A DNA stretch of 64,000 nt from an uncultured Planctomycetaceae bacterium (GTDB lineage Bacteria > Planctomycetota > Phycisphaerae > Phycisphaerales > Zrk34). Below, in pieces: positions 2,920-62,555 of the stretch. The stretch covers positions 4,544 to 68,543 of the forward strand of contig CAZUHK010000001.1 of assembly GCA_964620345.1 (NCBI GenBank). The letters run 5' to 3'. The notes beneath the pieces were generated by a model that was not told the DNA's origin, did not search any database, and worked only from the letters and a program-made list of their open reading frames with translations. Position 1 is the first letter of the stretch; each line of letters begins with the position of its first letter. The position numbers were made by a program, and so were the translations under genes.

Positions 2920-4143
2920 CTAACAGCAGCCGGAATCGGGATCGCAGCAGGGCGAATCATCAGCCAGTTCAGTGGCCCGGTAGTCCAGGCCCTTGCTCTG
3001 GCGGGGCGGGCGGATCGCGGCATGGGCGCAATCAAAGGTCGGTGCATCTTCGATCGGCACGGCCTGGCGCGGCTCGACGCCGTTGACGTGACCGGCGTAG
3101 GGGCCCAGCGGATCGGTCATCAGTCGGTAGGTCTTCTCGCACACCGCCATGCGCTGGCCGCGGTGCAGCACGTGGCCGTCGTCATCGCGCACCTGCTTCC
3201 ACGGGCCGGTGTAGATCACCGCCTGATTGCGGTCCAGGCAAGGCCCTTCCTTGCCCTTGTACGCGCGGACGGTGACGGAGCGGAACTCGATGCCATCGAT
3301 CGTCTGCCACGGCTCATCCTGACGCTTGAGCAACTCGACGCCGTAGAAGCCGGCTTCCTCGAACATTTTGAGAAACCGATCCTCGCGGAATGCGCCTGAA
3401 AGGCAGCCGGACCACAGATGCGGGTCATTGAGAATCTCAGGCGTGGGGTCTTCGTCGCAGACAATGTCCGAGATGACCACGCGGCCGCCGGGCCGAAGCA
3501 CGCGATGCATTTCGCCGAAGAGCTGCTGCTTCTCTTGGGTACGCACGAGGTTCAGCACGCAGTTGCTCACGATCAGATCGACGCTGTTGTCAGCGACGAG
3601 CGGTTCATCCCGGCGAAGCCGATCGCAATACGCGCGGTACTCATCGGCCTGCTCGACGCTGGTGATCGGGTTGTCCGCCAGCCACGCGGCGGCACGATCG
3701 AGGTCGAGCGCCATGTCCTGAATCCGTGCCTTGCGGAACGCGACGTTGCGACAACCGATTTTCTCCGCCATCTGGTCCTGATGCTTTCGGGCCAGCGCCA
3801 ACATCGCGTCGTTGAAGTCCAGGCCGATGACGCGGCCGGCCGCCCCGACCTTCTGGGCGAGGATGTAACACACCTTGCCCGCGCCGCAGCCCAGGTCCAT
3901 CACCACGTCGCCGGCGCGGGCGTGGGCCGATGGATCGCCGCAGCCATAATCCTTCTCGATGATCTCGTCGGGCAGCATCTTCAGATATTGCGCGTCGTAC
4001 TCGGCCGTGGGGCAGCACAGCCCCGGCTCGAACGTCCGGGCCCCCTTGGCGTAGCGATCACGAATCGCGTGTTCCAGCGACGAGCCATCCGATTCGGACA
4101 CGCCCGGGTGGCGCGGATCGCTTTGCAGCAGGTGTGCATTCAT
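2920..4143 (-). CDS. arsM: arsenite S-adenosylmethionine methyltransferase (ArsM-like)
   Basis: SAM motif VMDLGCGAGK. ArsM-type cysteines (GLCCPT, DYGCGDP, SNCVLNL, WSGCLSGA). Cys-rich C-terminal tail SPCCDPDSGCC. Start chosen at MNAHLL; the ORF is open to 4197. Confidence 0.8.
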   Translation of the reverse strand: MNAHLLQSDPRHPGVSESDGSSLEHAIRDRYAKGARTFEPGLCCPTAEYDAQYLKMLPDEIIEKDYGCGDPSAHARAGDVVMDLGCGAGKVCYILAQKVGAAGRVIGLDFNDAMLALARKHQDQMAEKIGCRNVAFRKARIQDMALDLDRAAAWLADNPITSVEQADEYRAYCDRLRRDEPLVADNSVDLIVSNCVLNLVRTQEKQQLFGEMHRVLRPGGRVVISDIVCDEDPTPEILNDPHLWSGCLSGAFREDRFLKMFEEAGFYGVELLKRQDEPWQTIDGIEFRSVTVRAYKGKEGPCLDRNQAVIYTGPWKQVRDDDGHVLHRGQRMAVCEKTYRLMTDPLGPYAGHVNGVEPRQAVPIEDAPTFDCAHAAIRPPRQSKGLDYRATELADDSPCCDPDSGCC

Positions 4144-8705: not shown

Positions 8706-9503
8706 ATGGCGAGCAAACGGACGAGGGCCGACGATTTTCCCCCCGAGCTTCGCGACGCGTCGCGCGGGCCGCGGCTGCACAAGGCGATGGCCGAGGCGGG
8801 CGTGGGCTCGCGTCGTGCCTGCGAGCGGTTGATCGAGCAGGGGCTGGTAACGGTCAACGGCCACCGCGTGACCGAGCCGCCGGTGTGGATTGACCCGGCG
8901 CAGGATCACATCGCGGTGGACGGCAAGCCCGTGGCGCGCAAGAAGCGTGAGCTGGGCAAGCTGTACCTGATGGTGAACAAGCCGCGCGGGGTGATCTGCA
9001 CCAACCGCGACGAGCTGGGCCGGCGGCGGGTGATCGACCTGGTGCCCCACCACCAGCGGCTGCACTGCGTGGGCCGGCTCGACGCCGATTCGACCGGCCT
9101 GGTCCTGCTGACCAACGACGGCGAGCTGACGCACAAGCTTGCCCACCCCAGCCACGAGGTGGCCAAGACGTATCGGGTCACCATCCAGGGCCGGCTCGAC
9201 GAGGCCGCGGTCGATCGGCTGACAAACGGCATCTTTCTGGCCGACCGCACCGGCACACAAGGCAAGGCCCGCGCGACGAAGGTGCGCTTCGTCGATCGCG
9301 ATCGCGAGCGCACGCGGCTGGAGATCACGCTCCGCGAAGGCCGCAACCGCGAGATCCGCCGCATGCTCGCCAAGCTCGGTCACAAGGTGACCAAGCTGCG
9401 CCGCGTGGCGATCGGCGGCGTGGTGCTCAAAGCCGTGGCCTCGGGTCAGTGGCGGGCGCTGAGCCGCGCCGAACTCAGCACGCTGCGCAAGGCCGGCGGA
9501 TAG
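8706..9503 (+). CDS. pseudouridine synthase, RsuA/RluB family
   Basis: S4 domain (RLHKAMAEAGVGSRRACERLIEQGLVTVNG) and catalytic GRLDADSTGLVLLTNDG. Confidence 0.85.
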   Translation: MASKRTRADDFPPELRDASRGPRLHKAMAEAGVGSRRACERLIEQGLVTVNGHRVTEPPVWIDPAQDHIAVDGKPVARKKRELGKLYLMVNKPRGVICTNRDELGRRRVIDLVPHHQRLHCVGRLDADSTGLVLLTNDGELTHKLAHPSHEVAKTYRVTIQGRLDEAAVDRLTNGIFLADRTGTQGKARATKVRFVDRDRERTRLEITLREGRNREIRRMLAKLGHKVTKLRRVAIGGVVLKAVASGQWRALSRAELSTLRKAGG

Positions 9504-9621
9504 AGCAGGTTGCAGCGTGGCGTGGCGTCTGTCGGGCGCCACACCTTGTCCCCAAGGGCAAGGTGTGATGCCGTCCGCGCTCCCGCACACCTTGCCGCTA
9601 AAGCGGACAAGGTGTGATGCC
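9503..9621 (+). repeat. palindromic repeat unit (copy 1, 9503-9570) plus a second related hairpin (9586-9617)
   Basis: The 68-nt unit is about 88 percent identical to the reverse complement of 54681-54748. The stem CACACCTTG...CAAGGTGTG occurs twice here, each time followed by ATGCC. Confidence 0.7.
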
Positions 9622-9689
9622 CACGATGGCGGATAGGGAGCCGGGATTGCGAAGCCCGGATGTGCGGCGCCCGCTTCGCCGGTTCGCGG

Positions 9690-12600
9690 TCAGTTCGGTT
9701 CCGACCGGGCCTCGCCGAACACATCGCGCCAGGCCCTGGTCAGGCCGGTGAATTGCTTCACATCGCGATTGGGGTTGTCGAGCGTGCCGGTCACGCGGAT
9801 GGTGACCAGTTGATTGCGCACCGCGTCGACCAGGTCGGTCACCGGCCCCAGGTCCAGGCCGGACGGGTTGGAACTGGTCAGGGTGATGTCGAGCTTCTCG
9901 CTATCCATCACGAGCGAGCCCTCGCCGGCCATTCGCATGTGAGGGGATTCGACCACGATCTGCTCGAACACGATCTTGCCGTCCTTGATGTAGTAGCTCA
10001 CGTCGGCCCGCTCGAAGCGTTTGGTGGTCGGCAGCGACAGGTGGGTGATGTGCAAGAGCCCCAGGGCCAGCGGCAGTTGGTACATGTCGCCCTCGCGGAC
10101 CTGGATCTGCCCGCGGCCGCGGACCTTGCCCGCCTCGCCCCAGCCGCCCTCGACGTTGAACGAGGCGGTGAGGTCGCCGTCCATCTTCGGCGCGTCGGCC
10201 TCGGGGGCTTGGCCGCGATGCAGGAAGGTCTCCAATCGCACGTCGCTCAGCGCCAGGCGGAACGAATACCGCTTGCGGTCGAGCATGATGCTGCCGCTGC
10301 CGGCCACGGCGCCTTCGTACAGCCGGCCGCGCAGGTCGGTGATGTTCAGCAATGGCGAATCGCCCACCGATTGCACCGCGGCGGTCAGGTCGGTGATGGT
10401 GCGGCCGCGGACGCTGAGGCGCTGGGCCTCGATCTTGGCGCGGACGCGCGGGTGCTCGCGCCCGGCGACGGCGGTGATCGCCAGTTTCACCACCGCGTCG
10501 ATGTGCTGCACCGGCACGCCCAGGTCGGCCCTGGCGTTGGCGCTGCGCACCTGGCCGACGATCGACCGCACCGTCTGGCCGTCCTCGGCGCCGGGCGACA
10601 GTCGCACCCGCGTGAAGTCGGCGTCGAACCTGCCGTCGATGCCCAGCGCGTCGATCAGCTCACGCACCGCGCCGGGCAGCGCGCGGCGCAGCTCGTCGGT
10701 GACCTTCTCGCCGCGGGCCTTGATCGCGAGCTCGGCCACGGGCGCCTCGCCGAGCTTCAGGTCGCCGTCGAGCGTGACGCGGCTGCCGCCCAACTCGCCC
10801 TCGATCGCGTCGAAGCGAATCTTGCCCGGCGTGATGACCACTTCGCCCCGGGCGTCCTTGAGGGTGACGCGCTTGTCGTCACGCAGGTAGCTGAACGACT
10901 CGGGCCGCACACGCACGGTGACATCGGCCGGATCATCACCGGTCTGATTGAGCGCGGCGGTCGCGTCGAATCGCCCGCGCGGCCCGAACCGCTCGACCCA
11001 CTTCGGCCAGGCCGGGTCGATCGGCGTGTACGGCCTGGCCAGATCGAGCAGGGGATCGGAGAAGTCCAGCCCCCGGGCGTCGATCGTCAGGTCGAGCCGG
11101 CGGCGCCGCTCGCCCCAACCCGCCTCACCGTCGAGCACGATGCGGCCTTCGCCGCGGTGGCCGGTGACCTTCTCAAACTTCACCTTCTCCAGCGAGACGG
11201 CCACCTGGCCTTCGAGCTTGTCCAGCGCGAACCGCCCCCGGCCGGGCTCGACCTTCGTCTCTTCCAAGTCGATCAGCAGTTGCACGTCCGGCTCGCCGTT
11301 GGCGGGCTCGTGGGTGATCTGACCGGCGAGGTTGATGTAACCCGAGGCGTGCAGGTCGCGCACGAACTGGTCTTGGGGGCGCGGCAGCGCGTCGAGCAGA
11401 ACAGCGTCGATCGGCAGGCGCGCCTTGACCCGCAGGTCGGGCCGCACTTCGACCATCCTCGGTTCTGCGTCGGCCGGGGCATGTCGTGCATCATTGCCCT
11501 CGCGTCCAGGCGGCAGCGCGATGTCGCCTTCCAGCCAGCCCACGCCGCCGTGCAGCCCGCGCCCGCGCACGCCGGTCAAGTGCAGGTTGTTCCGCGCGAT
11601 CGCCAGCTTGCCGCCGGACAACCGCAAGGGATACGGAAAATGCTTGAACACGATGCCCGCCTCGCGGATGTCGATGTCCGCGGCGACCTGCGTGCGTGTC
11701 TCGGTGCCCGGCTCACGGGTGACGTAGACCACCGCGTCGACCCGACCGCCGAGGTCGAACACCGGCGTTTGCAGCGCCGCGCCGAGCTCGGCGATCTGCC
11801 GCTCGATCGCCTCGGCGCCATCGGGGTCGAGCGTCGCGTCGATCTGCTCGAGCCGACGGCGAAGCGCCGACGCCCGCTCTTCGAGCTTGTTGTAACGGTC
11901 GTTGGTCAGGAAGTGACCGGCCTGAGCCATGCGCTCGAACGCCCGCTCGTTGAACAGCAGTTCGAGCGCCGCGCGGTACTTGGGCTTGAGCGCGGCGTAC
12001 AGATGCTCGTCGATCGGCACGTCGGCCGCGGCGATCTGGATGTCCACCGCCGGCGCATCCATGGAAGGGGTGATCACGCCCGCCACCGTCGCCGTGCCCC
12101 CGCCGCTGGTTCGACCGATCAACGAGAGCACGCGGAACTGCTCGGCGTTGAACGAAACCCGGCCGCGGCAATCGCTCAGTTCGTAGGGGAATCGCTCGAA
12201 CCGCACGCGCGCCGATTCGATCACCGCGGTGCCTTCGTAGGCGACCGGCGCCGGCTCGCTGCCCTGGCCGGGCTCGCGCCAGACCTTCATCGTCATCCGC
12301 CGAAGCTCCCCCGAGGGCGTGAGCATGCGGAAGACCTTCTGCACGGGCGTGGGCATGGCATAGATGTCGCGCGGCTCGGTGGGGATATCGAACGGCTCGG
12401 TTTCCAGGCCGATCTCAAACGGCGCGTCGAGCTGATAGCCGCGCAGCGTGCCGGCGACGGTGTAACCCAGGCCTTCGATCTGACCGACCAGCGGCTCGAC
12501 GATGCGGATGCCCGCGGCGTCGAAGCGGATCAACCCGGCGACATCGGTCATGCGATACCGCCGCCCGGCGCCCGGCAGGCGCGGCAGCGTCATCGCCAGT

Positions 12601-13541
12601 TCCGCCACGCGCACCTGCGCCCGCCACCCGTCGGCCTGATCGTAGGCGAAGTTCAGCTCGGGCAGTTGGCCGGCGGGGTCGAGCTCGTCGAGCACCGACC
12701 GCGCCGCGGTCGGCAGCAGGTCGCGGTAGCGGTCGTTGATGCCCAGCCCTTCGACGCGCGCCTGGGCGACGGCCTGGTGGATGTCGATCGCGCCGATGAC
12801 CCGCAAGCCCGCGTCGCGCGGCGCGACGCCGGCCAGTTCCTCCAGACGCAGGTGAAACAGTCCCGGCTGATCGCTATCGACGGTGACCTGGCCGTGCATC
12901 AGCAGCTCGGCCGAGACCTCGAACCGGTCGTTGTGAATCTCCCCGAACCGGTAGCGGGCGCGGTCGAGTTCCACGCGCGGCAACCGGGGCCACTGGGTCA
13001 TGTCGGCCGGCCCGCGCTCGTCGGGGTCCAGGTGCTGAACATTGAAGCGCGGCCGGGGCGCCTCGCCGGTCTCGGGGGTTCGGGGATCGATGATCTCGGC
13101 GAGGGTGAACACCGGCCGGCGCATGGTGATGGCCAGCGGCTGGACGTCCCCGCGCCACAGGTGGGCCGGGTCGCAGGTCATGATGATGTCTTCGGTGCGG
13201 AAGACCTCGGCGCCCTCGCCGGCAAGCTCCGGCGCGCGGACACGGACATCGCTGAGGTGGATCACGCCGCTCAGATCGAGTCGGGCCGAGCCGATGCTCA
13301 CCTCCCCGCCGGTGATCCGCTCCAGTTCGGCGCGGGCCATGTGGGCCACGCGCGTGGGCGAGAGGACGAACCAATACCCGCTGACCAGCAGGAGCAGGAG
13401 AATGATGATGCACGACACACCCGCCCGGCGGCAGCGTCGCCAGAACGTGGCCTTGGAGCAGTTGGTCGGGCGATCCGGCAAGGCGGGCGTTCCCAGGGGG
13501 ATGAGCGAGCCGCGTGCGGAGGCGTCAGGCACGAGCGGCAT
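9690..13541 (-). CDS. very large membrane-anchored AsmA/TamB-like envelope protein (family assignment tentative)
   Basis: 1283 aa counted from the Met at 13541. Single N-terminal TM (CIIILLLLLVSGYWFVL), then long beta-rich repetitive sequence. Confidence 0.55.
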   Translation of the reverse strand: MPLVPDASARGSLIPLGTPALPDRPTNCSKATFWRRCRRAGVSCIIILLLLLVSGYWFVLSPTRVAHMARAELERITGGEVSIGSARLDLSGVIHLSDVRVRAPELAGEGAEVFRTEDIIMTCDPAHLWRGDVQPLAITMRRPVFTLAEIIDPRTPETGEAPRPRFNVQHLDPDERGPADMTQWPRLPRVELDRARYRFGEIHNDRFEVSAELLMHGQVTVDSDQPGLFHLRLEELAGVAPRDAGLRVIGAIDIHQAVAQARVEGLGINDRYRDLLPTAARSVLDELDPAGQLPELNFAYDQADGWRAQVRVAELAMTLPRLPGAGRRYRMTDVAGLIRFDAAGIRIVEPLVGQIEGLGYTVAGTLRGYQLDAPFEIGLETEPFDIPTEPRDIYAMPTPVQKVFRMLTPSGELRRMTMKVWREPGQGSEPAPVAYEGTAVIESARVRFERFPYELSDCRGRVSFNAEQFRVLSLIGRTSGGGTATVAGVITPSMDAPAVDIQIAAADVPIDEHLYAALKPKYRAALELLFNERAFERMAQAGHFLTNDRYNKLEERASALRRRLEQIDATLDPDGAEAIERQIAELGAALQTPVFDLGGRVDAVVYVTREPGTETRTQVAADIDIREAGIVFKHFPYPLRLSGGKLAIARNNLHLTGVRGRGLHGGVGWLEGDIALPPGREGNDARHAPADAEPRMVEVRPDLRVKARLPIDAVLLDALPRPQDQFVRDLHASGYINLAGQITHEPANGEPDVQLLIDLEETKVEPGRGRFALDKLEGQVAVSLEKVKFEKVTGHRGEGRIVLDGEAGWGERRRRLDLTIDARGLDFSDPLLDLARPYTPIDPAWPKWVERFGPRGRFDATAALNQTGDDPADVTVRVRPESFSYLRDDKRVTLKDARGEVVITPGKIRFDAIEGELGGSRVTLDGDLKLGEAPVAELAIKARGEKVTDELRRALPGAVRELIDALGIDGRFDADFTRVRLSPGAEDGQTVRSIVGQVRSANARADLGVPVQHIDAVVKLAITAVAGREHPRVRAKIEAQRLSVRGRTITDLTAAVQSVGDSPLLNITDLRGRLYEGAVAGSGSIMLDRKRYSFRLALSDVRLETFLHRGQAPEADAPKMDGDLTASFNVEGGWGEAGKVRGRGQIQVREGDMYQLPLALGLLHITHLSLPTTKRFERADVSYYIKDGKIVFEQIVVESPHMRMAGEGSLVMDSEKLDITLTSSNPSGLDLGPVTDLVDAVRNQLVTIRVTGTLDNPNRDVKQFTGLTRAWRDVFGEARSEPN

Positions 13542-13654
13542 TGTAGCCGCCGCCGGGGCGCGGCCACAGGCACGCCGCCCCGCGCCCGTCGCGGGCAGTG
13601 CGCATATCGGCAATTCACGGCGCATCAAGCCGCTTTTCCCGAACCTCGGCCGCT

Positions 13655-15232
13655 TCAGGCCGGCTGGAACGTCGCCTCGGCGGGTGTCGCGCCGCCGGCT
13701 CGCGCCACGCCCCGGCCGTTCGCCGCCAGCGCCGTCAGCAGGTGGTACGCCGTCTCAACCGCATCGGCCTCACCCGCGGCTTGGGCGAGCTGCGCCGCGG
13801 TCTGCGCACCATCGGCCACGGCCAGTTGATCGACCAGGGCCCGCTGCAATTCCAGCACGCTCGCCGCGGCCTTCTTGCCCGCTTCGACGCCCGGCTGGTG
13901 ATACGCATTGATATTCACCAGCGACGCGTAGAACCCCACCGCCCGTTCGTACAGCGCGATCAGCACGCCGATGTGATACGCATCAACCCGCGGCACGGTG
14001 ATCGTCATCGACTCGCGCCCGGCCTCGTGCAGCGCGGCGCGCGTGCCCAGGTGCAAACCCCGCAGGTAATCACCGCTGGTCACGCCCGGCTCGACCTCGA
14101 TGCCATCGCCATCCTCCAGCGTCGTGATGAACGTGACGAAAAAGTTGTTCAACCCATCGCGCAACTGCTGCACATAAGCGTGTTGATCGGTCGAGCCCTT
14201 GTTGCCGTACACCGCGATGCCCTGGTGGACCACGTTGCCATCCAGGTCGTGCCGCTTGCCCAGCGATTCCATGACGAGCTGCTGCAGATACCGGCTGAAC
14301 AGCAGCAGGCGATCCTTGTACGGCAGGACGACCATGTCCTTGTCGCCTCGGCCGCGGGTCGCGTGATGCCACATCAGCGCCAGCAGGGCCGCGGGATTGG
14401 CCGGCGTGTCGTGCCGGCGGGTGACTTGATCGCACGCGCGGGCGCCGGCGAGCAGTTGGTCGATGTCGATGCCCTGCAGCGCCGCGGGCAGCAGGCCCAC
14501 CGCGCTGGTCTGGCTGGTGCGCCCGCCGACCCAGTCCCACATGGGCAACCGCGCCAGCCAGCCCTGGGCTTGGGCGATCTGATCGAGCTGGCTGCCCTGG
14601 CCGGTGACGGCCACGGCGTGCTGAGGAAAGTCGAGGTTGGCCGCGTCGTAGGCGGCCTTGGCGGTGAGCATGCCGTTGCGCGTCTCGGGCGTGCCGCCGG
14701 ACTTGGAGATCACCACGCACAGCGTGTTGTCCAGCTCCAGCCCAAGCTCGTCGAGCGTGCGGGCCATGCCATCGGGGTCGGTGTTGTCAAAGAAGTAGGG
14801 CTTGAGTCGGTCTTCACCGGGGTGGCCCAGCGCGTCTGCGACGAACTGCGGGCCCAGGGCGCTGCCGCCGATGCCGATCACCAGCAGGTTCCAGAACCGC
14901 TCGTCGTACTGCGGCTTGATGACCTGGCCGTGCACATCGGCGGCGAACTGTTTCACGCCGGCGATCGCATCGTGGATCGCCGCGGTCAGCTCGGGCTGGG
15001 GCGCGCGCTCGGCGTCGCGCAGCCAGTAATGACCGACCATGCGCCGCTCGTCGGGGTTGGCGATCGCGCCGGCTTCCAGCTCGTCCATCGCGGCGTAGGC
15101 CGCGGCCATCGGCGCGGCCATGCGATCGAACCAGTCGTCGGCGAAGTTCATGCGGCTGATGTCGAGCGTCAGGCCGATCGAATCGGCGACGCACAGCCGG
15201 TCGCAGTAGCGTTGCCAGAGCGAAGCGGTCAT
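13655..15232 (-). CDS. pgi: glucose-6-phosphate isomerase
   Basis: 525 aa starting MTASLWQRY, with PGI-like blocks ([36 protein letters not shown]). ATG confirmed at 15232. Confidence 0.9.
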
Positions 15233-15302
15233 GGATGCGAAACTCCTGGGTGGTCGGGTCGTGCGCGGGTTGGGTATAGTAACCGACCCGCCACCCTCCG
15301 CG

Positions 15303-16307
15303 ATGCCTGCCGTGACCGACCCGACGCTGAAATTCATCCTGTTCGCCGTGATCAGCGCCGCCGGCCTGGCCGGGGGGTACACCGCGCGGCGGCGCGGCTG
15401 GCTGGCCGAGCGGCACAGCCGAATCGTACACCTGATCACGCTGGTCGCGCTGTGGTCGCCGGTGTTCCTGCTGGCGTTCTGGCGGCTGGACCTCGACTTC
15501 GATCTGGTGCTGATCATGCTGCTGCAGCCGGTGTTCATGCTCATCGGCTGGGGCGTGTGCGCGGTGGTCGCACGGCTGATCAATTTCCCCGCCGAACACC
15601 GCGGCGAGCTGATCCTCTGCGCGGCGCTATCCAACCAGGGCATCACGCTCGGCGCCTACCTGTGCTTCGTCCTGCTCAAGCCGGGCCAGGAAGCGATGAA
15701 CTACGCCATCGCCTACGTCACGAGCATGGTCATCTTCATGGTGATCATCTTCTACCCGGTGGCGCACACCTACGAGCGGCGCAAGCGTCACGCCGCCGGG
15801 GGCCAAGCCGGCGCGTTCAGCTTCGCCCGGCTGATGCGCGAGTCGTTCCTCTCGCTGCGCGGCGCGCCGCTGTTCGCCGGGCTGATCGGCACGGCGCTGA
15901 ACACGATGGACGTGCCGGTGCCGCGGGCGATCGACGACAGCCCGCTGGTGAACGCGCTGCTGTACGCCGGATCGTTCGGCGCCTACTTCGGCAACGCGAT
16001 GTCGCTGCGCCTGGGCGATGCGCGCGGCTACCTCAAGCACCACGTCACCCTGGCGATCATCAAGTTCGCCATGGTGCCAGCGATCTTCGCCGGCCTGCTG
16101 CTGGGCGCGCTGCCCGCGGTGGGGCTGGGCCTCTCGGAGTTGCCCACGCAGGTGCTGCTGCTCTCGGCGTTCATGCCCGCGGCCATGAACAGCGTCATCA
16201 TCGCCAACCTCTTCCAACTCGACGCCCGCATGGCCAGCTCGCTGTGGCTGACCAGCACGGCCCTGTTCCTCGTGGGCGTGCTGCCGATCATCCTCTGGGT
16301 GGTCTGA
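15303..16307 (+). CDS. AEC (auxin efflux carrier) family membrane transporter
   Basis: About 10 TM segments. Start set at [11 protein letters not shown]. Confidence 0.65.
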
Positions 16308-16312
16308 CGCGG

Positions 16313-17380
16313 CTACGCCTCGAGCGACAGCTTGCCATCGTGCTTCGCGAACGCGGCGATTGCCTTGGCCTCGCTGTGTACGCGGATGTTCAGTTGAGTC
16401 GTGCGGGTCTGGCCGGGCTTGAGGGTTTTCTCGTGCCTGGGCTGTTCGCCGGTGGGGTACGGCGAGCCGGCCATCGGTTCGATGCCGCAGACGTACATGC
16501 CCGGGCAGAAGTTCTGCCAGAGCATGACGCGGGGGATCTGCTTGAGCTTGAAGCTGAGCTCCAGCGCCAGGCCGAGCTTGGGATTGATGATGCCCACGTG
16601 GGCGATGCCCTCGCGGTCGGCGTTGGGCGTGATGATGCCGCCGCGCGAGCCGTGGATGAACGCATCGGTCGGGGCCGGCACGTCCTTCCACCCCTCCAGC
16701 GACCCGGGCACGGCGACTTCCTGCGCCTCGTCCGGCCAGGGCCAGAAACGGCCGGACAACACCAGCTTCGCCCCCTCATCCAGCAGCGGCCAGCCGAGGT
16801 TGCAGTGGTACATCAGCGCATGGGGATTGGGGCGCGGGTCGCGATTGGTCGTGCGGTCGGTGATCGTGATGGCGTTGTGGCCGAGGGTGGAGCGGATCGC
16901 GCGTTCGACGACGACGTTGGGCCCGTAGCCGCGAGTGTCGGCGATGGTCGCGTCGATGCCGATGTCGTGGCGTTGGCGCCACGGGTCGGGCTGGACGGTG
17001 GTGTTGACCTCAGCGGGCGTGTTGGAGTGGTGGCCGTGCAGGCCGGTCGGGCCGGTCTTCTCTTCGCGGTTGTGGCCGATGTACACCGGCCCGCACGTGG
17101 TCATCAGCCCGCCGGGCCAGCCGGTGAGCCAGTCGCTGTCGTGGTGATGCGCGTGGTTGGGCGGCTTGATGCCGTTGGGGGTGAGGTAGGCCAGCGAGCG
17201 CTGATTGAGCGCGGCGTCGACGAGGTCGGCGCCGCGGTCGAGCGCGATGGTGTACCGCAAGCCCCCGCCGGTGTTGACGAAAGCGACGCGGCTGCCGGCC
17301 TCGCGCCCGCGGTCGAGCGTGGCGGTGGTAATCCCGCCGATCTGGCGGACGTTCTCAAAACGATCGGCGGGGATGTTCAT
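16313..17380 (-). CDS. aldose 1-epimerase-like protein (DUF4432 type)
   Basis: 355 aa with His-rich mutarotase-like blocks (HGHHSNTP, MYHCNLGWP). Confidence 0.65.
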   Translation of the reverse strand: MNIPADRFENVRQIGGITTATLDRGREAGSRVAFVNTGGGLRYTIALDRGADLVDAALNQRSLAYLTPNGIKPPNHAHHHDSDWLTGWPGGLMTTCGPVYIGHNREEKTGPTGLHGHHSNTPAEVNTTVQPDPWRQRHDIGIDATIADTRGYGPNVVVERAIRSTLGHNAITITDRTTNRDPRPNPHALMYHCNLGWPLLDEGAKLVLSGRFWPWPDEAQEVAVPGSLEGWKDVPAPTDAFIHGSRGGIITPNADREGIAHVGIINPKLGLALELSFKLKQIPRVMLWQNFCPGMYVCGIEPMAGSPYPTGEQPRHEKTLKPGQTRTTQLNIRVHSEAKAIAAFAKHDGKLSLEA

Positions 17381-17556
17381 CGGCCTGGCTCCGAGGATCG
17401 GTGTTGGCGGCCGATGATACCGCGCCGGGCGATCGGGCAGGCGGGGCCTGGTTCATGTGGCTGACCCCGCATCCATTCCGCACTCAAGTTTGGCAAGCAT
17501 CTGGATGATTGATAGCACAATGATATAACACGCGGCAGACCATCGGAGACCCCGTC

Positions 17557-57234: not shown

Positions 57235-58281
57235 TCATTCCGCCTGGGCTTGGGCCATCGCGATCCGCGTCACACCGGCCTGCTTGAGCGCGTCCATCAC
57301 GCCGACCACGTGCCTGAGCGGCGTTTTCCGGTCGGCCCGGATGATGACACGCGAGTCGTCCGCCACGCGCCCGCGCAGTTGTTCGAGAGAACTCGGCTGG
57401 CCATCGACGATCAACTCGCCGGCCTCGTTGATGTTCACGACCAGCGTCGCCGGAGCCGGCGCGGCCTCGCCCGGCAAAGCCACGCCCAACTCATCGGGAT
57501 CGGCGAACGCCTCTTTAAGCCACCGCTTCATGTGCGCCCACGAGCGATGGTCGGCCCGCTTGTCGTAGCTCACGCCGTCCATGCCGTAGCCATCGGCGCC
57601 GGGGTTGGTGAAGCTGTGCTTCGCCCCGCCGTACATCACCATCTGCCAGTCGGCGCCGCTCCGGTTCATCCCCTGGGTCAAGGCGGTGATCGCGGCGGGC
57701 TCGGTAAACCCGTCGGCCGCGCCGTGGCAGACCAGCACCGCGGCCTTGATCTTCTCGTCGCCCGTCGGTGCCGGCAGCGACCCGTGAAAACTCACCACCG
57801 CGTCGAGGTCCGCCCCGCCGATCGCGAGGTTCAGCACCGTCGAGCCGCCGAAACAATAGCCGATCGCACCGAGCTTCTCGCCATCGGTCTGCGGCTGGTC
57901 GGCCAGCACCTTCAGCCCGACCTTGGCGCGGGCCATCCATTGATCCTTGTCCTGGTTGAGGTGCCCGGCCCACTGCCCGGCCTGCTTGGGGTCGGCCGTG
58001 ACCTTGCCCCGGCCGTACATGTCCGCCGCGAACGCGACGTAGCCCAGCGCGGCCAGCATGCGGGCGCGTCTCTTGGCGTAATCGTTCAGGCCCCACCATT
58101 CGTGGATGACCAGCACGCCCGGCCGCTTGCCCTCGACCGCGTCGTCGTAGGCCAGGTAGCCGACGAGTTCGACATCCCCGTGGGTGTAGGTCATGTCCTT
58201 CGTGACGACCTCGCCATGAGCGAGGCCGGCCAAAGCGGTGGCGATGAACAGAATCGATACGGTGCGCGGTGCCTGATGCAT
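57235..58281 (-). CDS. secreted dienelactone hydrolase fused to an ExbD/TolR-type C-terminal domain
   Basis: Signal peptide. DLH blocks VIHEWWGLNDY and GAIGYCFGGS. C-terminal LVVNINEAGELIVDGQP...VIIRADRKTPLRHVVGVMDALKQAGVTRIAMA. Confidence 0.8.
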   Translation of the reverse strand: MHQAPRTVSILFIATALAGLAHGEVVTKDMTYTHGDVELVGYLAYDDAVEGKRPGVLVIHEWWGLNDYAKRRARMLAALGYVAFAADMYGRGKVTADPKQAGQWAGHLNQDKDQWMARAKVGLKVLADQPQTDGEKLGAIGYCFGGSTVLNLAIGGADLDAVVSFHGSLPAPTGDEKIKAAVLVCHGAADGFTEPAAITALTQGMNRSGADWQMVMYGGAKHSFTNPGADGYGMDGVSYDKRADHRSWAHMKRWLKEAFADPDELGVALPGEAAPAPATLVVNINEAGELIVDGQPSSLEQLRGRVADDSRVIIRADRKTPLRHVVGVMDALKQAGVTRIAMAQAQAE

Positions 58282-58335: not shown

Positions 58336-58614
58336 ATGACGCACGAAACGTCGACATCCGCTCACGGACGAGCACGAGCGATGGTACGCGTTGCAGAAAC
58401 TTGCGGTACCGTGCGGGACCAAGGGATACCCCGGCAGGATTCGAACAACAGCGATGAATCTCGGGGAAACAGCGATGATGAGTGCAACGACGGTGCAAAA
58501 TCCGGTGCATCGCTATCGCTGAATGAAGTCATTGAAGCATGGCCACGGCTCACACCTGCCCAGCGTGTGCGGGTGCTGGCGATCGTGCGCCAGTCGATCG
58601 GGGGTGCGACGTGA
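58336..58614 (+). CDS. element ORF A (reading frame crosses attL; start unclear)
   Basis: C-terminal part NEVIEAWPRLTPAQRVRVLAIVRQS looks protein-like. The stop overlaps the GTG of the next ORF (GTGA). The only ATGs (58336, 58381) lie in the host flank. Confidence 0.3.
   Translation: MTHETSTSAHGRARAMVRVAETCGTVRDQGIPRQDSNNSDESRGNSDDECNDGAKSGASLSLNEVIEAWPRLTPAQRVRVLAIVRQSIGGAT
58387..58446 (+). repeat. attL: displaced copy of the tRNA-Arg 3-prime end plus 40 nt of downstream flank
   Basis: Identical to 62442-62502 except for one missing C (CCCC versus CCCCC). Confidence 0.85.
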
Positions 58615-59030
58615 TCAGTTGTGCGTTGAACGTATCCGAGGAGTTGGGCGTTTGGCTGGAGGTGTTCGACGGCGATCGCCTGGCGGTGTTCCCGGTCACT
58701 GAACCACAGCGGGCCGAGTTGGTGGGCCTGGTCACGGCGGTGGTGCATATCGGCGGCGAGCGGTGGCGGCTGTCGATTAGCCGGCGGGGCGTCGTGCGAC
58801 TGTTGGACCCGAACGGCTCATTCGCGTCCGACCTGTCGGGGCTGCTGGATCGCTTCGGGGACGGGCCAACAGTCCAGCGTTCGCAGCACGACCAGGACGC
58901 GGCGTCGTTTCAGCGGGGCAGAAAGATGATGCCGGGGTGTCGGGGTGGCGAACGCCCGACTCGCCCGGGTGGTGACGGTCGAGAATCGCACAGCCGCAAG
59001 CCGGGCGAAACTGGGGGAACCGTCCAATGA
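58611..59030 (+). CDS. element ORF B, hypothetical
   Basis: GTG start coupled to ORF A. The stop overlaps the Rep ATG (ATGA). Confidence 0.45.
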   Translation: MISCALNVSEELGVWLEVFDGDRLAVFPVTEPQRAELVGLVTAVVHIGGERWRLSISRRGVVRLLDPNGSFASDLSGLLDRFGDGPTVQRSQHDQDAASFQRGRKMMPGCRGGERPTRPGGDGRESHSRKPGETGGTVQ

Positions 59031-60280
59031 GCGCAGGCCTTCGACGTGAGCCGATCTCTCAAGATGAGCAGCCCCCGGCCGCGAGCGGCCGTAAGGCCGC
59101 CGCGGCTGGGGTGCTTAGTCTTGACACAGAGGTTTCTAATTCTACGGACGCTGTGGAGGGTATCTTCCCGGTGCCGTTGGGCGGGCGTCTGGATCCGATC
59201 GGCGGCAAGCGCAAGCGATACGAGGACTGGCTGCGGGTCAAGGCGTTGCTGTCACGGATGACGGCGGGCGTGTTCCTCACGCTGACGACGGATCGCAGCA
59301 AGTGGACACGCTTTCGGATCATCGAGCGTTGGTACGCGATGGCGGCGGGCGATCGCGAGAAGCTGGGTCTGACGGCGACGGAGATCAACACGCTGCCGGT
59401 CGAAGAACTGGCGTACCGTTTCCAGGCGATCTACGTCAGCCGGTTCCTATCTCACCGGCTGGGGTTCAAGGTGTGGGTTCGCGTGGTCGAGCCGCAGACC
59501 CGCAGCGGCAATGGCTGGATGCACTGGCACTGCGTGGTTGAAGTGGCGGGCACACGTTGGGACACCGGCAATCGTCGCAAGCCGATCGATCTCAAGGGCC
59601 TGGCCAACGCCTGTTGGTCGGTCTGGCGTGACGATTACGAGTTCGGCATGGTGGATGTGCAGTTGGTCAAGTCGCATGACCGTCTCGCGTCGTACCTGTC
59701 GAAGTACATCACCAAGGCCTGGCCAGCGATACCCCGTTGGGTGCTTGAATCTTCCCGTGGCGTGCGTCTGGTGGGCTTCGCCAAGGCGGCGGGTGTGATC
59801 GTGCGGGACGTCATGGGCCTGCCTGAATCGTCGTCAGACGACGACGACGGGGACGACGACGGGGACGAGGACAAGCGGAAGGCGAAGCGTGCGAAGCGTC
59901 GCCCGTTGATCGACCGGCTCACTGAATCGGGGATGTCCTGCAACGTGATCCAGCGGCACGGGCGGTGTGCGTGGGCAGGGATGATTGACGCTCCGCTGTG
60001 GGCGTTGTTCGAGCTGGTGCCGGCGGTGCCCGGCTTGCGGATCGTGCGGCGTACGTGGCAGACGTTCAAGGGCCAGGTCGAGAAGATGGGCCTGGTCTGG
60101 GCGGGCGAGTGGACGCGGGACGGGCCGAGGTCGGCGATGAATCGGGTCATGACGGCTCTTGAACGGCATGGCCTGTTGGAGCGGATCGACCTGGAGAAGC
60201 GACGACGCCGGGAGCAGATGTTGGACAGTTGGGAACTGATGCAGTGGGAGCTTGAACAGGGGGTGTGCGGTGCTTGCTGA
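59027..60280 (+). CDS. HUH-superfamily rolling-circle replication initiator / relaxase-like protein (two-Tyr type)
   Basis: Motif I FLTLT (aa 83-87), motif II HWHCVV (aa 166-171), motif III YLSKYITK (aa 223-230). No Walker A motif. Confidence 0.7.
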   Translation: MSAGLRREPISQDEQPPAASGRKAAAAGVLSLDTEVSNSTDAVEGIFPVPLGGRLDPIGGKRKRYEDWLRVKALLSRMTAGVFLTLTTDRSKWTRFRIIERWYAMAAGDREKLGLTATEINTLPVEELAYRFQAIYVSRFLSHRLGFKVWVRVVEPQTRSGNGWMHWHCVVEVAGTRWDTGNRRKPIDLKGLANACWSVWRDDYEFGMVDVQLVKSHDRLASYLSKYITKAWPAIPRWVLESSRGVRLVGFAKAAGVIVRDVMGLPESSSDDDDGDDDGDEDKRKAKRAKRRPLIDRLTESGMSCNVIQRHGRCAWAGMIDAPLWALFELVPAVPGLRIVRRTWQTFKGQVEKMGLVWAGEWTRDGPRSAMNRVMTALERHGLLERIDLEKRRRREQMLDSWELMQWELEQGVCGAC

Positions 60281-60581
60281 TCTTCTCGCGATGTCTCATC
60301 CGATTGAGTTCTTCGGGCTGCCGGTGCCCTGGTGGCTGCTGGGCCTGGGTCTCCTGGTCCTCGTCGTGGCGGCCGCGGTCGAGACCTTCCCTTCGCTTCG
60401 TCTGGCTGTCGGTGCGGTCGTCTCGGTCGGCCTGGTCGGCTGGCTGCTGGTGTCCTGGATTGCTGACGGCCGCTGGGCCGGGGTGCTGTTCGTGCTGCTG
60501 GTGGGTTCGCTCGCGGTCTGGCCGCACGTGGCGCCCGTGGTGCGGGTCTGGTGGTGCAGCGTGCGCCGGAAGGGTTGGTGA
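60270..60581 (+). CDS. element small membrane protein (3 TM)
   Basis: Hydrophobic ORF. Likely GTG start preceded by AGGGGG. Overlaps the Rep 3-prime end. Confidence 0.4.
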   Translation: MLADLLAMSHPIEFFGLPVPWWLLGLGLLVLVVAAAVETFPSLRLAVGAVVSVGLVGWLLVSWIADGRWAGVLFVLLVGSLAVWPHVAPVVRVWWCSVRRKGW

Positions 60582-60610
60582 GCGGAGAACGAAACTTGTG
60601 AACTGGACGC

Positions 60611-60639
60611 TTGACAAGCCGTTCCGTACTCGTCATACT
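60611..60639 (+). promoter_or_regulatory. strong sigma70-like promoter TTGACA-17 nt-CATACT inside the element
   Basis: -35 at 60611-16 and -10 at 60634-39. The ATG of the RHH gene is 10 nt after the -10. Confidence 0.55.
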
Positions 60640-60649
60640 GGTGTCACCC

Positions 60650-61039
60650 ATGAAAGATAACAAAGCAAAAATCACAATCTCAATCTCTCCCGATCTCCTG
60701 CGTCGCATCGACGCGGTGGCCGAAGCCCGCGAGATGAAGCGATCAACGCTGATGGAGCGCATGCTGGGCAACCAGATTGAGGAACAGGAGGAATTCCTGC
60801 TCGGCATGGAGAAGCCGCTAGATCGGGCCGTCGCCAGAGTGCTGCTGCGGAATCCGAAGGTGATGAAGGCAATGTCGGTTGTGGTTGGCGAACACATCTC
60901 TGACGAGCAGATCGAACGTGCGAAGCGTGAGCTTCCGAACGAACTGGCTCGTGGGAAGAATCGGGAGGCCGTGAAGAAAGCACGGGAGAAGGCGAAGCGT
61001 GCACGTGCAGAATCAGACGGCGAGGTCGCATTCAGTTGA
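60650..61039 (+). CDS. ribbon-helix-helix (CopG-like) regulator
   Basis: KITISISPDLLRRIDAVAEAREMKRSTLMERML followed by a charged helical tail. Confidence 0.75.
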   Translation: MKDNKAKITISISPDLLRRIDAVAEAREMKRSTLMERMLGNQIEEQEEFLLGMEKPLDRAVARVLLRNPKVMKAMSVVVGEHISDEQIERAKRELPNELARGKNREAVKKAREKAKRARAESDGEVAFS

Positions 61040-61057
61040 TTCCGGAGGACACAGGCG

Positions 61058-61240
61058 ATGGACAAACTACTGCTCACCTACCGCGAAGCGGCGATGCTGC
61101 TCGGAGTCTGTGAGCGCAAGCTGGCGGACATGGTGAAGCGTCGCGAGATTCCATGCGTGCGGATTAAGCGATCGGTGCGGTTCCGCCGCGAAGCGCTCTG
61201 CCGTTGGGTCGAGCAACTCGAGCAACAAGGGGCGGCGTGA
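61058..61240 (+). CDS. xis: excisionase-family HTH DNA-binding protein
   Basis: LLTYREAAMLLGVCERKLADMVKRREIPCVRIKRSVRFRREAL. GGAGGA lies upstream. The stop overlaps the int ATG (TGATG). Confidence 0.8.
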   Translation: MDKLLLTYREAAMLLGVCERKLADMVKRREIPCVRIKRSVRFRREALCRWVEQLEQQGAA

Positions 61241-62520
61241 TGGCGAGCATCATCACCAGCAAGTCGGGCCATCGAACCATCCAGTTCAAAGGCGGCGACG
61301 GTCGGCGGCCGAAGATCACGCTCGGCAAGGTGTCGCGCAAGCGGGCCGAGTCTCTCCGGGCCAAGGTGGAAGACTTGGTCTCGGCGAGCATCACCGGCGA
61401 GTCGCCCAGGGCGTCAACCGCGGAGTGGCTCAAAATCATTGGCGACGATCTGCACGCGAGGATTGCGCACGCCGGGCTGGCTGATCCAAGGTCGAGCCGC
61501 GAGGCGGAGAAGCTGGGGCCGTTTACCCGCGAGTACATCGCGAGCCGCACAGACGTGAAGCCGGGCACGGTCAAGAACCTGACGGTTGCCGCTGAAGCCT
61601 TGGTGGGTTTCTTCGGTGCGGGCCGGTCGATGAAATTGATCACGCCGGGCGATGCCGAAGCGTTCCGCGTGCACCTGCTGGGCAATTGGTCGGACAACAC
61701 GGTGCGGCGCATCTGTGGTCGCGGCCGCCAGTTCTTCCGTGCCGCGATGCGTCGGGGGTTGGTCGCCGCCGAGCCGTTCGCCGACATTGCCTGTGCGGTC
61801 GGCACCGATACATCGCGATTCCGCTTCGTCACACTCAACGAGATCGCTCGTGTCCTGGCGGCTTGTCCCGATGCGGAGTGGCGGGTGATCTTTGCTCTGA
61901 GTCGCTTCGGTGGATTGCGGTGCACGTCGGAGCATTTGTCGCTGCGGTGGGAAGACATCGATTGGGAACATAACCGCATGACGGTGCGCAGCCCGAAGAC
62001 CGAGCACCACGAGGGCAAGGCGTCGCGTCTGGTGCCGCTGTTCCCCGAGCTGCGGGTAGGCCTGCTACCGCTGTTCAGCGAGTGCGAAGCTGGCACAGTG
62101 CATGTGATCAACAGGTATCGCGATCACGGGGTCAACCTTCGCACGCAGGCCCATCGCATCATCAAACGTGCGGGCCTCGAGCCGTGGCCGAAGGTGTTTC
62201 ACAACATGCGGGCGTCGCGTGAGACCGAACTGTGCGACGAGTACCCCGAGCACGTCGTGTGTGCGTGGATCGGTAACAGTAAGGCGGTGGCGAGAAAGCA
62301 CTACCTGCATGTGACCGACGATCATTGGGCACGAGCGACCCGTGTTGCAGTGGTGCAGAAAGCGGTGCAGCAAGCTGCCGCATCGGACCGCAACGGGAAG
62401 CACGGCGAACCGGATGAAGTTTCGAAGTCGCGGCGGTGCAGCGCGTTGCAGAAACTTGCGGTACCGTGCGGGACCAAGGGATACCCCCGGCAGGATTCGA
62501 ACCTGCGACCTCAGCTTTAG
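61240..62520 (+). CDS. int: tyrosine-type site-specific integrase
   Basis: Catalytic blocks GLRCTSEHLSLRWEDID, HNMRASRETEL, ARKHYLH. The last 27 codons run through attR and the tRNA antisense strand. Confidence 0.9.
   Translation: MASIITSKSGHRTIQFKGGDGRRPKITLGKVSRKRAESLRAKVEDLVSASITGESPRASTAEWLKIIGDDLHARIAHAGLADPRSSREAEKLGPFTREYIASRTDVKPGTVKNLTVAAEALVGFFGAGRSMKLITPGDAEAFRVHLLGNWSDNTVRRICGRGRQFFRAAMRRGLVAAEPFADIACAVGTDTSRFRFVTLNEIARVLAACPDAEWRVIFALSRFGGLRCTSEHLSLRWEDIDWEHNRMTVRSPKTEHHEGKASRLVPLFPELRVGLLPLFSECEAGTVHVINRYRDHGVNLRTQAHRIIKRAGLEPWPKVFHNMRASRETELCDEYPEHVVCAWIGNSKAVARKHYLHVTDDHWARATRVAVVQKAVQQAAASDRNGKHGEPDEVSKSRRCSALQKLAVPCGTKGYPRQDSNLRPQL
62442..62502 (+). repeat. attR: direct repeat overlapping the 3-prime 21 nt of tRNA-Arg
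   Basis: 61 nt, identical to attL apart from one additional C. Confidence 0.85.
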
Positions 62521-62555
62521 GAAAGCCGTGCTCTATCCATCTGAGCTACGAGGGC
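62482..62555 (-). tRNA. tRNA-Arg (anticodon CCT)
   Basis: Hand-folded 74-nt cloverleaf. Acceptor GCCCTCG/CGGGGGT, D arm GCTC/GAGC, anticodon arm CGGCT-TTCCTAA-AGCTG, T arm GCAGG-TTCGAAT-CCTGC, discriminator A, no encoded CCA. Confidence 0.9.

Follow-up and report, generated by a model that had tools for sequence, protein, structure and literature searches.

What kind of mobile element occupies the 3′ end of the only transfer RNA (tRNA) gene in a 64,000-nt stretch of planctomycete DNA (uncultured Planctomycetaceae bacterium, assembly GCA_964620345.1, contig CAZUHK010000001.1, positions 4,544 to 68,543; this whole stretch is hereafter the window)? Two direct repeats there bracket an element of about 4.1 kb that combines a tyrosine integrase (Int) and an excisionase (Xis) with a 417-aa protein resembling HUH rolling-circle replication initiators (Rep), and a first-pass annotation, made from the letters alone, had left three options: an integrated rolling-circle plasmid, a satellite or mobilizable element whose Rep serves as a relaxase, or the remnant of a small single-stranded DNA (ssDNA) virus. 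The first of these is the best supported, because relatives of the Rep occur alone on ~2-kb circles and the relatives of the element have no capsid genes. We assign a probability of roughly 0.7 to the reading of the element as an integrated rolling-circle plasmid (episome) from a family associated with Planctomycetota, with a rep–xis–int core and no conjugation genes, and we file it as a minimal, non-conjugative integrative rolling-circle plasmid with an integrase/attP arrangement like that of phage Mx8.

Insertion site and gene content

ARAGORN finds a single tRNA in the window, tRNA-Arg(CCT), which Rfam scores at 64.7 bits, and the right-hand repeat (Table 1) covers the 3′ 21 nt of this gene (62482–62502, T-loop to discriminator) plus 40 nt beyond it. 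The two repeats, of 60 nt (attL) and 61 nt (attR), differ in one C-run alone, with four C at 58429–58432 in the left copy and five at 62484–62488 in the right (the repeat finder returned the ungapped part of the repeat, and the C-run difference was read from the sequence); a chance origin for a 60-nt exact repeat is very unlikely, such a match being far beyond chance. The acceptor stem requires all five C's for pairing, which identifies the right copy as the working end of the tRNA; the left copy, to judge by its letters, is a displaced, slightly damaged tRNA fragment. The first-pass annotation had described the repeats, their single missing C, the tRNA and the 21 + 40 nt overlap, and ARAGORN, Rfam and our reading of the sequence confirm it in each of these particulars. 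By the Islander definition (PMC4383910), a tRNA-integrated genomic island is marked by direct repeats, formed by an intact tRNA gene and the 3′ fragment displaced from it, and a tyrosine integrase gene lies within it or overlaps it; the window element is such an island.

Between the repeats, the genes are tightly coupled. The stop codon of the first open reading frame (ORF), termed ORF A, overlaps the start of ORF B (GTGA, 58611–58614), the stop of B overlaps the start of rep (ATGA, 59027–59030), rep and the gene for a protein with three hydrophobic segments overlap by 11 nt (GTG at 60270) and, at a junction absent from the first-pass annotation, the xis stop overlaps the int start (TGATG, 61238–61242). 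The earlier picture of the ORF chain and its three-transmembrane protein was otherwise right, and the remaining three proteins that it had named all score above curated cutoffs: the ribbon-helix-helix (RHH) regulator with RHH_1 (21.6 bits, cutoff 20.5); the excisionase-type helix-turn-helix (HTH) protein with HTH_17 (43.8 bits, cutoff 27) and TIGR01764 ‘excise’ (45 bits, cutoff 28.8), which place it in the excisionase family; and the integrase with Phage_integrase (PF00589; 33.5 bits, cutoff 27.1, profile positions 2–171) and the phrog_1 integrase (4 × 10−30), with the catalytic residues of a tyrosine recombinase (GGLR, the His-x-x-Arg of HNMR and the Tyr of KHY) read by eye in the translation. 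The internal promoter that had been proposed before the RHH gene corresponds to a TTGACA-17-CATACT match ending 10 nt upstream of the RHH ATG (60650). A near-palindrome, GCTTGACAAGC (60610–60620), contains the −35 element and is a possible operator for the RHH protein.

Searches of the element ORFs against Pfam, PHROGs, NCBIfam and PADLOC returned no capsid, portal, packaging, coupling-protein or secretion match, bearing out the first-pass statement that such genes are lacking. PADLOC assigned no defence function to B, Rep, the membrane protein or the RHH protein, and Rfam detected the tRNA alone and no antisense copy-control RNA family. No element ORF holds an FtsK-like Tra translocase or spread-gene domain of the kind that defines actinomycete integrative and conjugative elements.

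The Rep family and its free circles

A word-indexed protein search with the Rep returned the query itself and one homolog, and a 60-sequence profile added almost nothing; an exhaustive profile search retrieved 230 cluster representatives at E ≤ 1 × 10−3 (31 at E ≤ 1 × 10−30). Residues G163, H166, H168, W200, Y223, Y227 and P236 are invariant among 60 aligned relatives, H166 and H168 being the HUH histidines and Y223 and Y227 the Y-x-x-x-Y pair. Against Pfam, 56 of the 60 relatives matched REP_ORF2-G2P (PF23343; E ≤ 0.01, best 8.5 × 10−12), 12 matched Phage_GPA and four Rep_1, so the lack of HUH homology that the first-pass annotation had named as a reason to abandon its reading was looked for and was not what we found. 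A match to RepSA (PF20199), at which the window Rep reaches 13.6 bits for a cutoff of 34, appeared weakly in one of the 60. An AlphaFold model of the Rep built on the 60-relative alignment (predicted local distance difference test (pLDDT) 88) places FLTLTTD on strand 81–88, HWH on strand 165–172 and YLSKY on helix 217–229; motif I (uuTuxx), HUH and Y-x-x-x-Y…K follow in that order on an HUH fold, as in the two-tyrosine Rep class. Structure comparison with BFVD gave 76 matches at E ≤ 1 × 10−3, the named ones being a Microvirus replication initiator and HRPV-1 protein 1. We place the 417-aa protein, in a family of its own, among two-tyrosine HUH initiators like phiX174 gpA, P2 gpA and that of pC194. 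This assignment follows from the motifs, the family matches to REP_ORF2-G2P and the structure matches, and not from the protein's own Pfam score; by sequence, the window Rep is a divergent relative of REP_ORF2-G2P and not a scored member.

The Rep family escapes current Pfam cutoffs and is uncatalogued, by which we mean absent from the plasmid, phage and viral-contig collections searched: tblastn with the Rep found no match in 72,556 PLSDB plasmids or 50,697 INPHARED phage records, and IMG/VR held no relative by protein pattern, with the conserved DNA block described below also unmatched there.

The best structural matches of the Rep are viral, the REP_ORF2-G2P model represents an ORF2/G2P phage family and a small membrane protein gene follows rep, all of which would suit an ssDNA prophage (of microvirus, inovirus or pleolipovirus type) reduced to a remnant by the loss of its structural genes. 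We nevertheless consider such a relic very improbable. The minimal gene set recurs in seven elements from different genomes, and genes for a capsid, a spike or a morphogenesis ATPase are missing from all of them (across the window and six relatives, Pfam and PHROGs gave no capsid, pI/Zot or spike match that would mark a Microviridae, Inoviridae or Pleolipoviridae provirus, and the capsid-bearing relatives that the first-pass annotation had proposed to look for did not appear); no relative was found in IMG/VR, by protein or DNA motif, or in the phage records; the element in circular form is 98% coding with intact overlapping genes, unlike decay; and the membrane protein is unique to the window copy.

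The evidence that speaks most directly to replication came from a metagenome scan for Rep relatives, which found five loci, mostly short (L-numbers denote relative loci and W the window element). Three contigs with Rep relatives have overlapping ends: L013 (ENA, 2,006 bp, exact 55-nt terminal overlap, implied circle 1,951 bp), L008 (JGI, 2,094 bp, 124-nt overlap, implied circle ~1,970 bp) and L010 (JGI, 1,981 bp, 123-nt overlap, implied circle ~1,860 bp). L008 and L013, which come from different projects and are 89–91% identical to each other, encode only a Rep and one ORF of 82–114 aa, and their Reps (36% identical to that of the window; L010, 27%) are closer to the window Rep than are the Reps of the integrated relatives L003, L005 and L014 described below. 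No other evidence speaks as strongly for a plasmid replication initiator, over a mere relaxase or viral relic, as these ~2-kb circular contigs with Rep relatives. These circular contigs (~1.86–1.97 kb, GC ~54%) would rank among the smallest known replicons.

The element has no transfer genes, yet its relatives are spread over two classes and six or more tRNA targets, so some intercellular route must exist, and the element could be a hitchhiker, that is, a mobilizable element or satellite whose HUH protein acts mainly as a relaxase or packaging initiator, passing single-stranded DNA to the conjugation pore or capsid of a helper, and does not serve plasmid maintenance. Rep-type HUH and Rep_trans proteins act as relaxases in streptococcal integrative mobilizable elements (PMC5357655, PMC7563843, PMC5714925), providing a precedent, and one tail-bearing relative has a NikA-like protein and an IS91-like Y2 HUH enzyme. 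Conjugation, however, is unreported in Planctomycetes, among whose known plasmids only a single one encodes a mating-pore system (bioRxiv 10.1101/2024.01.22.576637); the searches turned up no MOB relaxase, coupling protein or oriT-like hairpin, and the window has no helper prophage or conjugative element. The occurrence of Rep relatives alone on ~2-kb circles also favours a replication initiator, and we regard the hitchhiker explanation as unlikely, while noting that it is compatible with an integrated rolling-circle plasmid.

If the Rep initiates rolling-circle replication, its origin may lie within its own gene. A block in the 5′ part of rep, CTTAGTCTTGAC…AATTC, is 80–88% identical at the nucleotide level across elements whose Reps are 31–42% identical. 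The LSLD…NS peptide that it encodes is short and falls within the N-terminal disordered part of the Rep model (pLDDT below 50), and its CTT-AGT-CTT codons are kept in 6 of 10 rep genes, in which CTT makes up 16% of Leu codons and AGT 8% of Ser codons. The window contains the conserved 12-mer at this one place, each of the other elements, the ~2-kb circles among them, likewise has a single copy, and in L005 the block has been retained 750 nt upstream of rep, where another ORF covers it. In phiX174 and P2, the origin lies inside the initiator gene, gene A. The core TCTTGA of the block resembles the pC194-type origin TCTTATCTTGATAATAAG (PMC7072734), and pSAM2 has been placed in the pC194-type nick-site family (PMC2440964). 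On this evidence, we put the chances that the conserved block is the replication origin at about even. As a promoter, the block was rejected, since its TTGACA-like and TAATTC-like elements are just 10 nt apart. The L005 ORF in which, and not in rep, the block is read (9160–9984, 274 aa) matches sigma-70 region 4 weakly and has been inserted between the LSLDQEENKS/CTTAGTCTTGAC block and rep.

Integrated relatives, the integrase tail and the circular form

The layout of the window element, with flanking repeats of their own, recurs in six other elements (at least six; 3.4–6.4 kb): L003 in an Isosphaeraceae metagenome-assembled genome (MAG; tRNA-Ile, 3.4 kb), L004 in a Phycisphaeraceae MAG (tRNA-Asp, 4.1 kb), L005 in the complete genome of Planctomycetales bacterium ZRK34 (tRNA-His, 4.3 kb), L006 on a 203-kb metagenome contig (tRNA-Val, 4.0 kb), L001 on a metagenome contig (tRNA-Asp, 6.4 kb, with HNH and GmrSD cargo) and L014 in Natronomicrosphaera hydrolytica AB-hyl4 (partial tRNA at a contig end, 4.8 kb). 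All relatives with a named source are Planctomycetota, from two classes (Phycisphaerae and Planctomycetia). The elements have in common the tail (‘ORF A’), the Rep, usually the RHH protein, the HTH_17 excisionase and an integrase running into the tRNA, with variable small genes before or after rep; L001 is a decayed member, its int truncated and out of frame. Because the same architecture sits in different tRNA targets, we interpret the elements as repeated independent insertions and not as conserved synteny, the latter being a possibility that the first-pass annotation had raised against its own reading. The integrases fall into three groups by sequence inspection (W, L003 and L012; L004, L005 and L001; L006 and L014); integration modules have therefore been exchanged.

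Opposite-strand cargo lies between rep and the RHH gene in L001 (11263–12683, an HNH protein and a type IV restriction-like GmrSD_N protein) and in L014 (2326–2964, a weak HEPN_RiboL-PSP match), and these small elements may carry defence genes. L014 is the whole 4,853-bp contig of GCA_041821185.1, with only 45 + 14 nt of flank outside its 28-nt repeats, and a contig break at such short repeats might reflect mixed integrated and excised forms.

What the first-pass annotation had listed as a separate gene, ORF A, is most likely, from the reading frames, the 3′ end of int separated from the rest by integration. ORF A ends in a conserved 25-residue tail, (L/V)IEAWPRL(T/S)PxxRxxVLAVVR, and its frame is open through the att repeat in every element; the sole canonical start upstream of the window tail is a GTG inside attL. 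When attP is rebuilt as the attR repeat plus the sequence following attL, Int in W, L003, L004, L005, L006 and L014 reads through and ends in the tail, the window Int growing from 438 to 488 aa counted from an upstream TTG at 61204 (from 426 to 476 aa from the ATG at 61240). Two further elements with the tail and without this Rep, L027 (9994–18331, 8.3 kb, DUF3987 replicase, tRNA-Arg(ACG)) and L028 (6058–9865, 3.8 kb, no Rep match, tRNA-Val(CAC)), are also in frame by arithmetic on reported coordinates. Int and tail are thus in frame in all eight intact elements, at different tRNA targets (about 1 in 6,500 by chance if the elements are independent), the exception being L001 with its truncated int. 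In L014 and L005 the stretch from att to the tail is devoid of ATG, GTG and TTG, which leaves ORF A no start codon there, and we reject it as an independent gene. In five elements the start of the next gene overlaps the tail stop codon (GTGA or ATGA), and because of this overlap ribosomes are expected to reach the next gene via the tail. P0158, considered as a counter-example with the opposite tRNA orientation, proved on inspection to have the usual arrangement, in frame.

Because L027 and L028 have the tail without this Rep, the tail device belongs to an integrase clade and not to the Rep family, and its recurrence in these two otherwise unrelated Planctomycetota elements may point to a phylum-wide integrase clade built around the tail. 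Several tail sequences retrieved by a tail profile have N-termini that are translated tRNA T-arms, and hypothetical proteins of 30–80 aa with AWPRL…VLAVV near tRNA fragments may likewise be integrase 3′ ends. The tail had no tblastn match among the INPHARED records. The tail and the catalytic tyrosine are separated by ~100 codons of low conservation, which consist of attP DNA; in the window copy, GGTGCA occurs there five times in ~240 bp, against 0.36 per kb in the window. We take the GGTGCA pairs (Table 1) as candidate arm-type integrase sites. In L003 (integrase 47% identical), pairs of GG(C/T)GCA are found equally far from its core, and L004 and L028 have arm repeats of their own. To judge from these repeats, attP looks functional.

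Closing the element at attP gives a circle of 4,056 bp that is 97.9% coding, with seven reading frames on one strand in a mostly overlapping chain: promoter, RHH, an 18-nt gap, xis, int–tail, B, rep, the membrane protein gene and a 68-nt gap with the promoter-like site. The two gene sets of the first-pass annotation hold for the integrated state and dissolve into one continuous coupled ring in this rebuilt form. On insertion, the ring is opened at a point that separates the catalytic domain of the integrase from the tail; once in the chromosome, B, rep and the membrane protein gene have no recognisable promoter and adjoin a divergent host hydrolase gene, and RHH–xis–int keeps its promoter.

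These features suggest a life cycle. Integrated at the 3′ end of tRNA-Arg(CCT), the element would preserve the gene with its own copy of the tRNA end; Xis and Int would recombine attL and attR to release the 4,056-bp circle; and Rep would nick the 5′ part of rep at the conserved CTTAGTCTTG/AC-like site and then prime a rolling-circle replication carried out by host enzymes. Integration would remove the integrase tail and part B–rep from the sole recognisable promoter, leaving the replication genes silent when integrated and on after excision. By analogy with known systems, we infer that rep is expressed mainly after excision and that the promoter is repressed by the RHH protein, a role that CopG-type proteins have on rolling-circle plasmids. 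It is possible, at somewhat less than even odds, that integration and excision act as a master switch by topology alone, with insertion swapping the tail for a few tRNA-encoded residues, which would alter the activity or direction of Int, and disconnecting rep, and excision restoring both; almost without dedicated regulators, a 4-kb replicon would then be silent when integrated and replicate as an episome.

The window copy might instead be an immobilised fossil, a member of the family that no longer excises productively. The displaced tRNA fragment at attL has a one-base deletion, with similar small deletions in L003 and L005, the assemblies of the two runs that hold the organism contain no circular junction and L001 shows that members decay. 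The seven reading frames and their overlaps are nevertheless intact, and apart from that deletion the repeats match at all 60 nt. Logan contigs of the organism (flanking gene and rep; assemblies of the two runs) break in or near the repeat, as assemblies do with or without circles, so the missing junction is uninformative, as these contigs are on an empty site. Moreover, tyrosine recombinases are not blocked by deletions that lie beyond the region of strand exchange. We judge the fossil explanation doubtful for the window copy.

The attL deletions fall in an acceptor/T-stem G/C run in three of the seven elements (1 nt in the window, 58429–58432 versus 62484–62488; 1 nt in L003, 52–55 versus 3443–3446; 2 nt in L005, 8751–8778 versus 13062–13091; attL versus attR). 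In all three, the attR version and not the attL version gives Int in frame with the tail. The deletions could be decay, a lock against excision or a route to tail-only expression.

Several observations weigh against an integrated rolling-circle plasmid that works in this way. On its own, the window Rep scores 23.4 bits with REP_ORF2-G2P, below the gathering cutoff of 27.8; Foldseek matches in the PDB are weak (E 0.1–1), the meaningful ones being HUH nuclease domains, and a profile search of PDB sequences with the Rep gave no match. An inverted-repeat search found no convincing origin hairpin or single-strand origin. The promoter evidence is a match to the sigma-70 consensus, in a phylum whose promoters are poorly known. 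For the window element and its int-bearing relatives no circular form or empty site was seen. The tail profile found 51 proteins among 5.8 billion, all of 32–84 aa and none fused to an integrase, so the Int–tail fusion, and with it attP inside the int ORF as in Mx8, is reconstructed and not observed. Finally, a crossover left of the C-run would, from the sequence, give a circle with four C's and an Int stopping at 58522 without the tail, and a crossover right of it would leave a damaged tRNA behind after excision; either way, the window copy may be decaying.

Table 1 Features of the window element (positions in the window) and its predicted junctions
Feature	Position	Strand	Remarks
attL, left direct repeat	58387..58446	.	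displaced tRNA 3′ fragment + 40 nt; 4-C run, one C short
‘ORF A’, predicted 3′ end of the integrase gene in circular form	58447..58614	+	ends in conserved tail NEVIEAWPRLTPAQRVRVLAIVR
P′ arm, GGTGCA pair 12 nt apart	58492..58509 (58492/58504)	+	candidate arm-type site; same geometry in L003
ORF B, 139 aa	58611..59030	+	no family match; GTG start overlaps tail stop codon; homolog in L004 only
rep, 417-aa two-tyrosine HUH rolling-circle initiator	59027..60280	+	motifs FLTLTTD, HWHCVVE, YLSKYITK
Candidate double-strand origin/nick site CTTAGTCTTGAC…AATTC	59114..59143	+	nucleotide-level conservation in 5′ part of rep
Candidate nick-site region containing CCTTAGTCTTGACACAGAGG	rep 5′ part		predicted cleavage after TCTTG
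103-aa protein, three hydrophobic segments	60270..60581	+	GTG start; unique to window element; variable cargo position
Promoter-like site TTGACA-17-CATACT	60611..60639	+	only strong coding-strand sigma-70-like match; main non-coding gap
RHH (CopG-type) regulator, 129 aa	60650..61039	+	RHH_1
xis, excisionase-family HTH protein, 60 aa	61058..61240	+	HTH_17, TIGR01764
Tyrosine integrase, integrated state, 426 aa from ATG	61240..62520	+	ends within tRNA gene
P arm, GGTGCA pair 12 nt apart	62352..62369 (62352/62364)	+	further copy 62435; candidate arm-type site inside int
attR, right direct repeat	62442..62502	.	provides working tRNA 3′ end
tRNA-Arg(CCT), integration target	62482..62555	-	ARAGORN, Rfam
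Predicted attP junction			…GAAGTCGCGGCGGTGCAG-(61-nt core)-AACAGCGATGAATCTCGG…
Predicted empty attB			…GAGCGATGGTA-(core)-CTGCGACCTCAGC…

Known systems and further observations

Among described elements, the window element works most like the rep–xis–int core of pSAM2 without its Tra and spread genes. pSAM2 replicates by rolling circle and has a rep–xis–int operon (PMC2440964); the two share tRNA insertion by a tyrosine integrase with an excisionase and, as predicted for the window element, post-excision rolling-circle replication by an HUH initiator with a pC194-type nick site (a candidate in the window element) and co-expression of rep, xis and int (PMC2440964). pSAM2, however, is 10.9 kb and conjugative, with an FtsK-like TraSA, spread genes and Kor/Pra/Pif control, none of which is present here, and belongs to another host phylum; the window Rep falls below the RepSA model and so is not RepSA, and its gene follows int around a circle in which int spans attP.

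That last arrangement is known from phage Mx8, whose attP lies inside int, so that integration into a tRNA gives the gene a new 3′ end and altered activity, and from SSV viruses, whose integrases span attP (PMC6070905, PMC4383910). The same holds for eight of eight intact elements here, as judged from the rebuilt attP. Mx8 is a ~50-kb tailed phage and SSV a fusellovirus, whereas these are plasmid-like elements of 3.4–8 kb; the IEAWPRL…VLAVVR tail has no phage match, and the integrases are only distantly related to phage integrases. The SSV gene is split close to its 5′ end, which disrupts the enzyme, whereas here the catalytic domain stays whole. The split-integrase ring would couple integration state to replication and so extend the Mx8/SSV-type arrangement to small plasmid-like elements in another bacterial phylum.

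With pC194, phiX174 and P2, whose initiators are two-tyrosine HUH proteins of superfamily I, the Rep shares motifs I–III with Y-x-x-x-Y, relatives that match Phage_GPA and Rep_1, and the TCTTGA core like the pC194 origin (PMC7072734), but this similarity is at the motif level only, no PLSDB match, origin hairpin or single-strand origin was found, and the nick site is a candidate. Integrative mobilizable elements of Firmicutes are likewise small and integrated and combine a tyrosine integrase, an excisionase and a rolling-circle-type nuclease with no mating pore (PMC5357655, PMC5704250, PMC7563843), but they use Rep_trans/MobT or MOB relaxases with a defined oriT and known helpers, whereas the Rep here is of G2P/GPA type and its relatives occur as free ~2-kb circles. 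The circularisation-dependent expression that we propose for B–rep, from the layout and one promoter-like site, has a likeness in Tn916, although the function gated here would be replication and not conjugation. Excision of Tn916 is said, after work by Celli and Trieu-Cuot in 1998, to join its ends such that transcription crosses the joint into genes silent when integrated.

A survey lists 21 Planctomycetota plasmids of 12.5–278 kb, with no rolling-circle replicon mentioned and no conjugation reported (bioRxiv 10.1101/2024.01.22.576637). A family of 2–6-kb rolling-circle replicons, as free circles and integrated in tRNA genes, fills a gap in the plasmid biology of this phylum, in which genetic manipulation is difficult. 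Very small vectors for shuttling or integration could be derived from it, and members are present in two cultured strains.

The integrase tail also has a different neighbourhood in eight Logan contigs from eight runs (L016–L023), in which a 59-aa tail-like ORF, downstream of an ORF without a Pfam record, lies beside a NikA-like protein and a 516-aa IS91-like Y2 HUH transposase; this looks like another HUH-bearing element type with the same tail. Outside the element, the host gene on its left flank (57235–58281, minus strand) codes for a protein that unusually combines a dienelactone hydrolase domain with an ExbD/TolR-like domain fused at its C-terminus, two adjacent plus-strand ORFs of 1,389 and 1,288 aa at 9660–17464 of the window have no Pfam match at E ≤ 1 × 10−5, and flagellar genes (flagellin, FlgK, hook/rod proteins) lie at ~23–33 kb.

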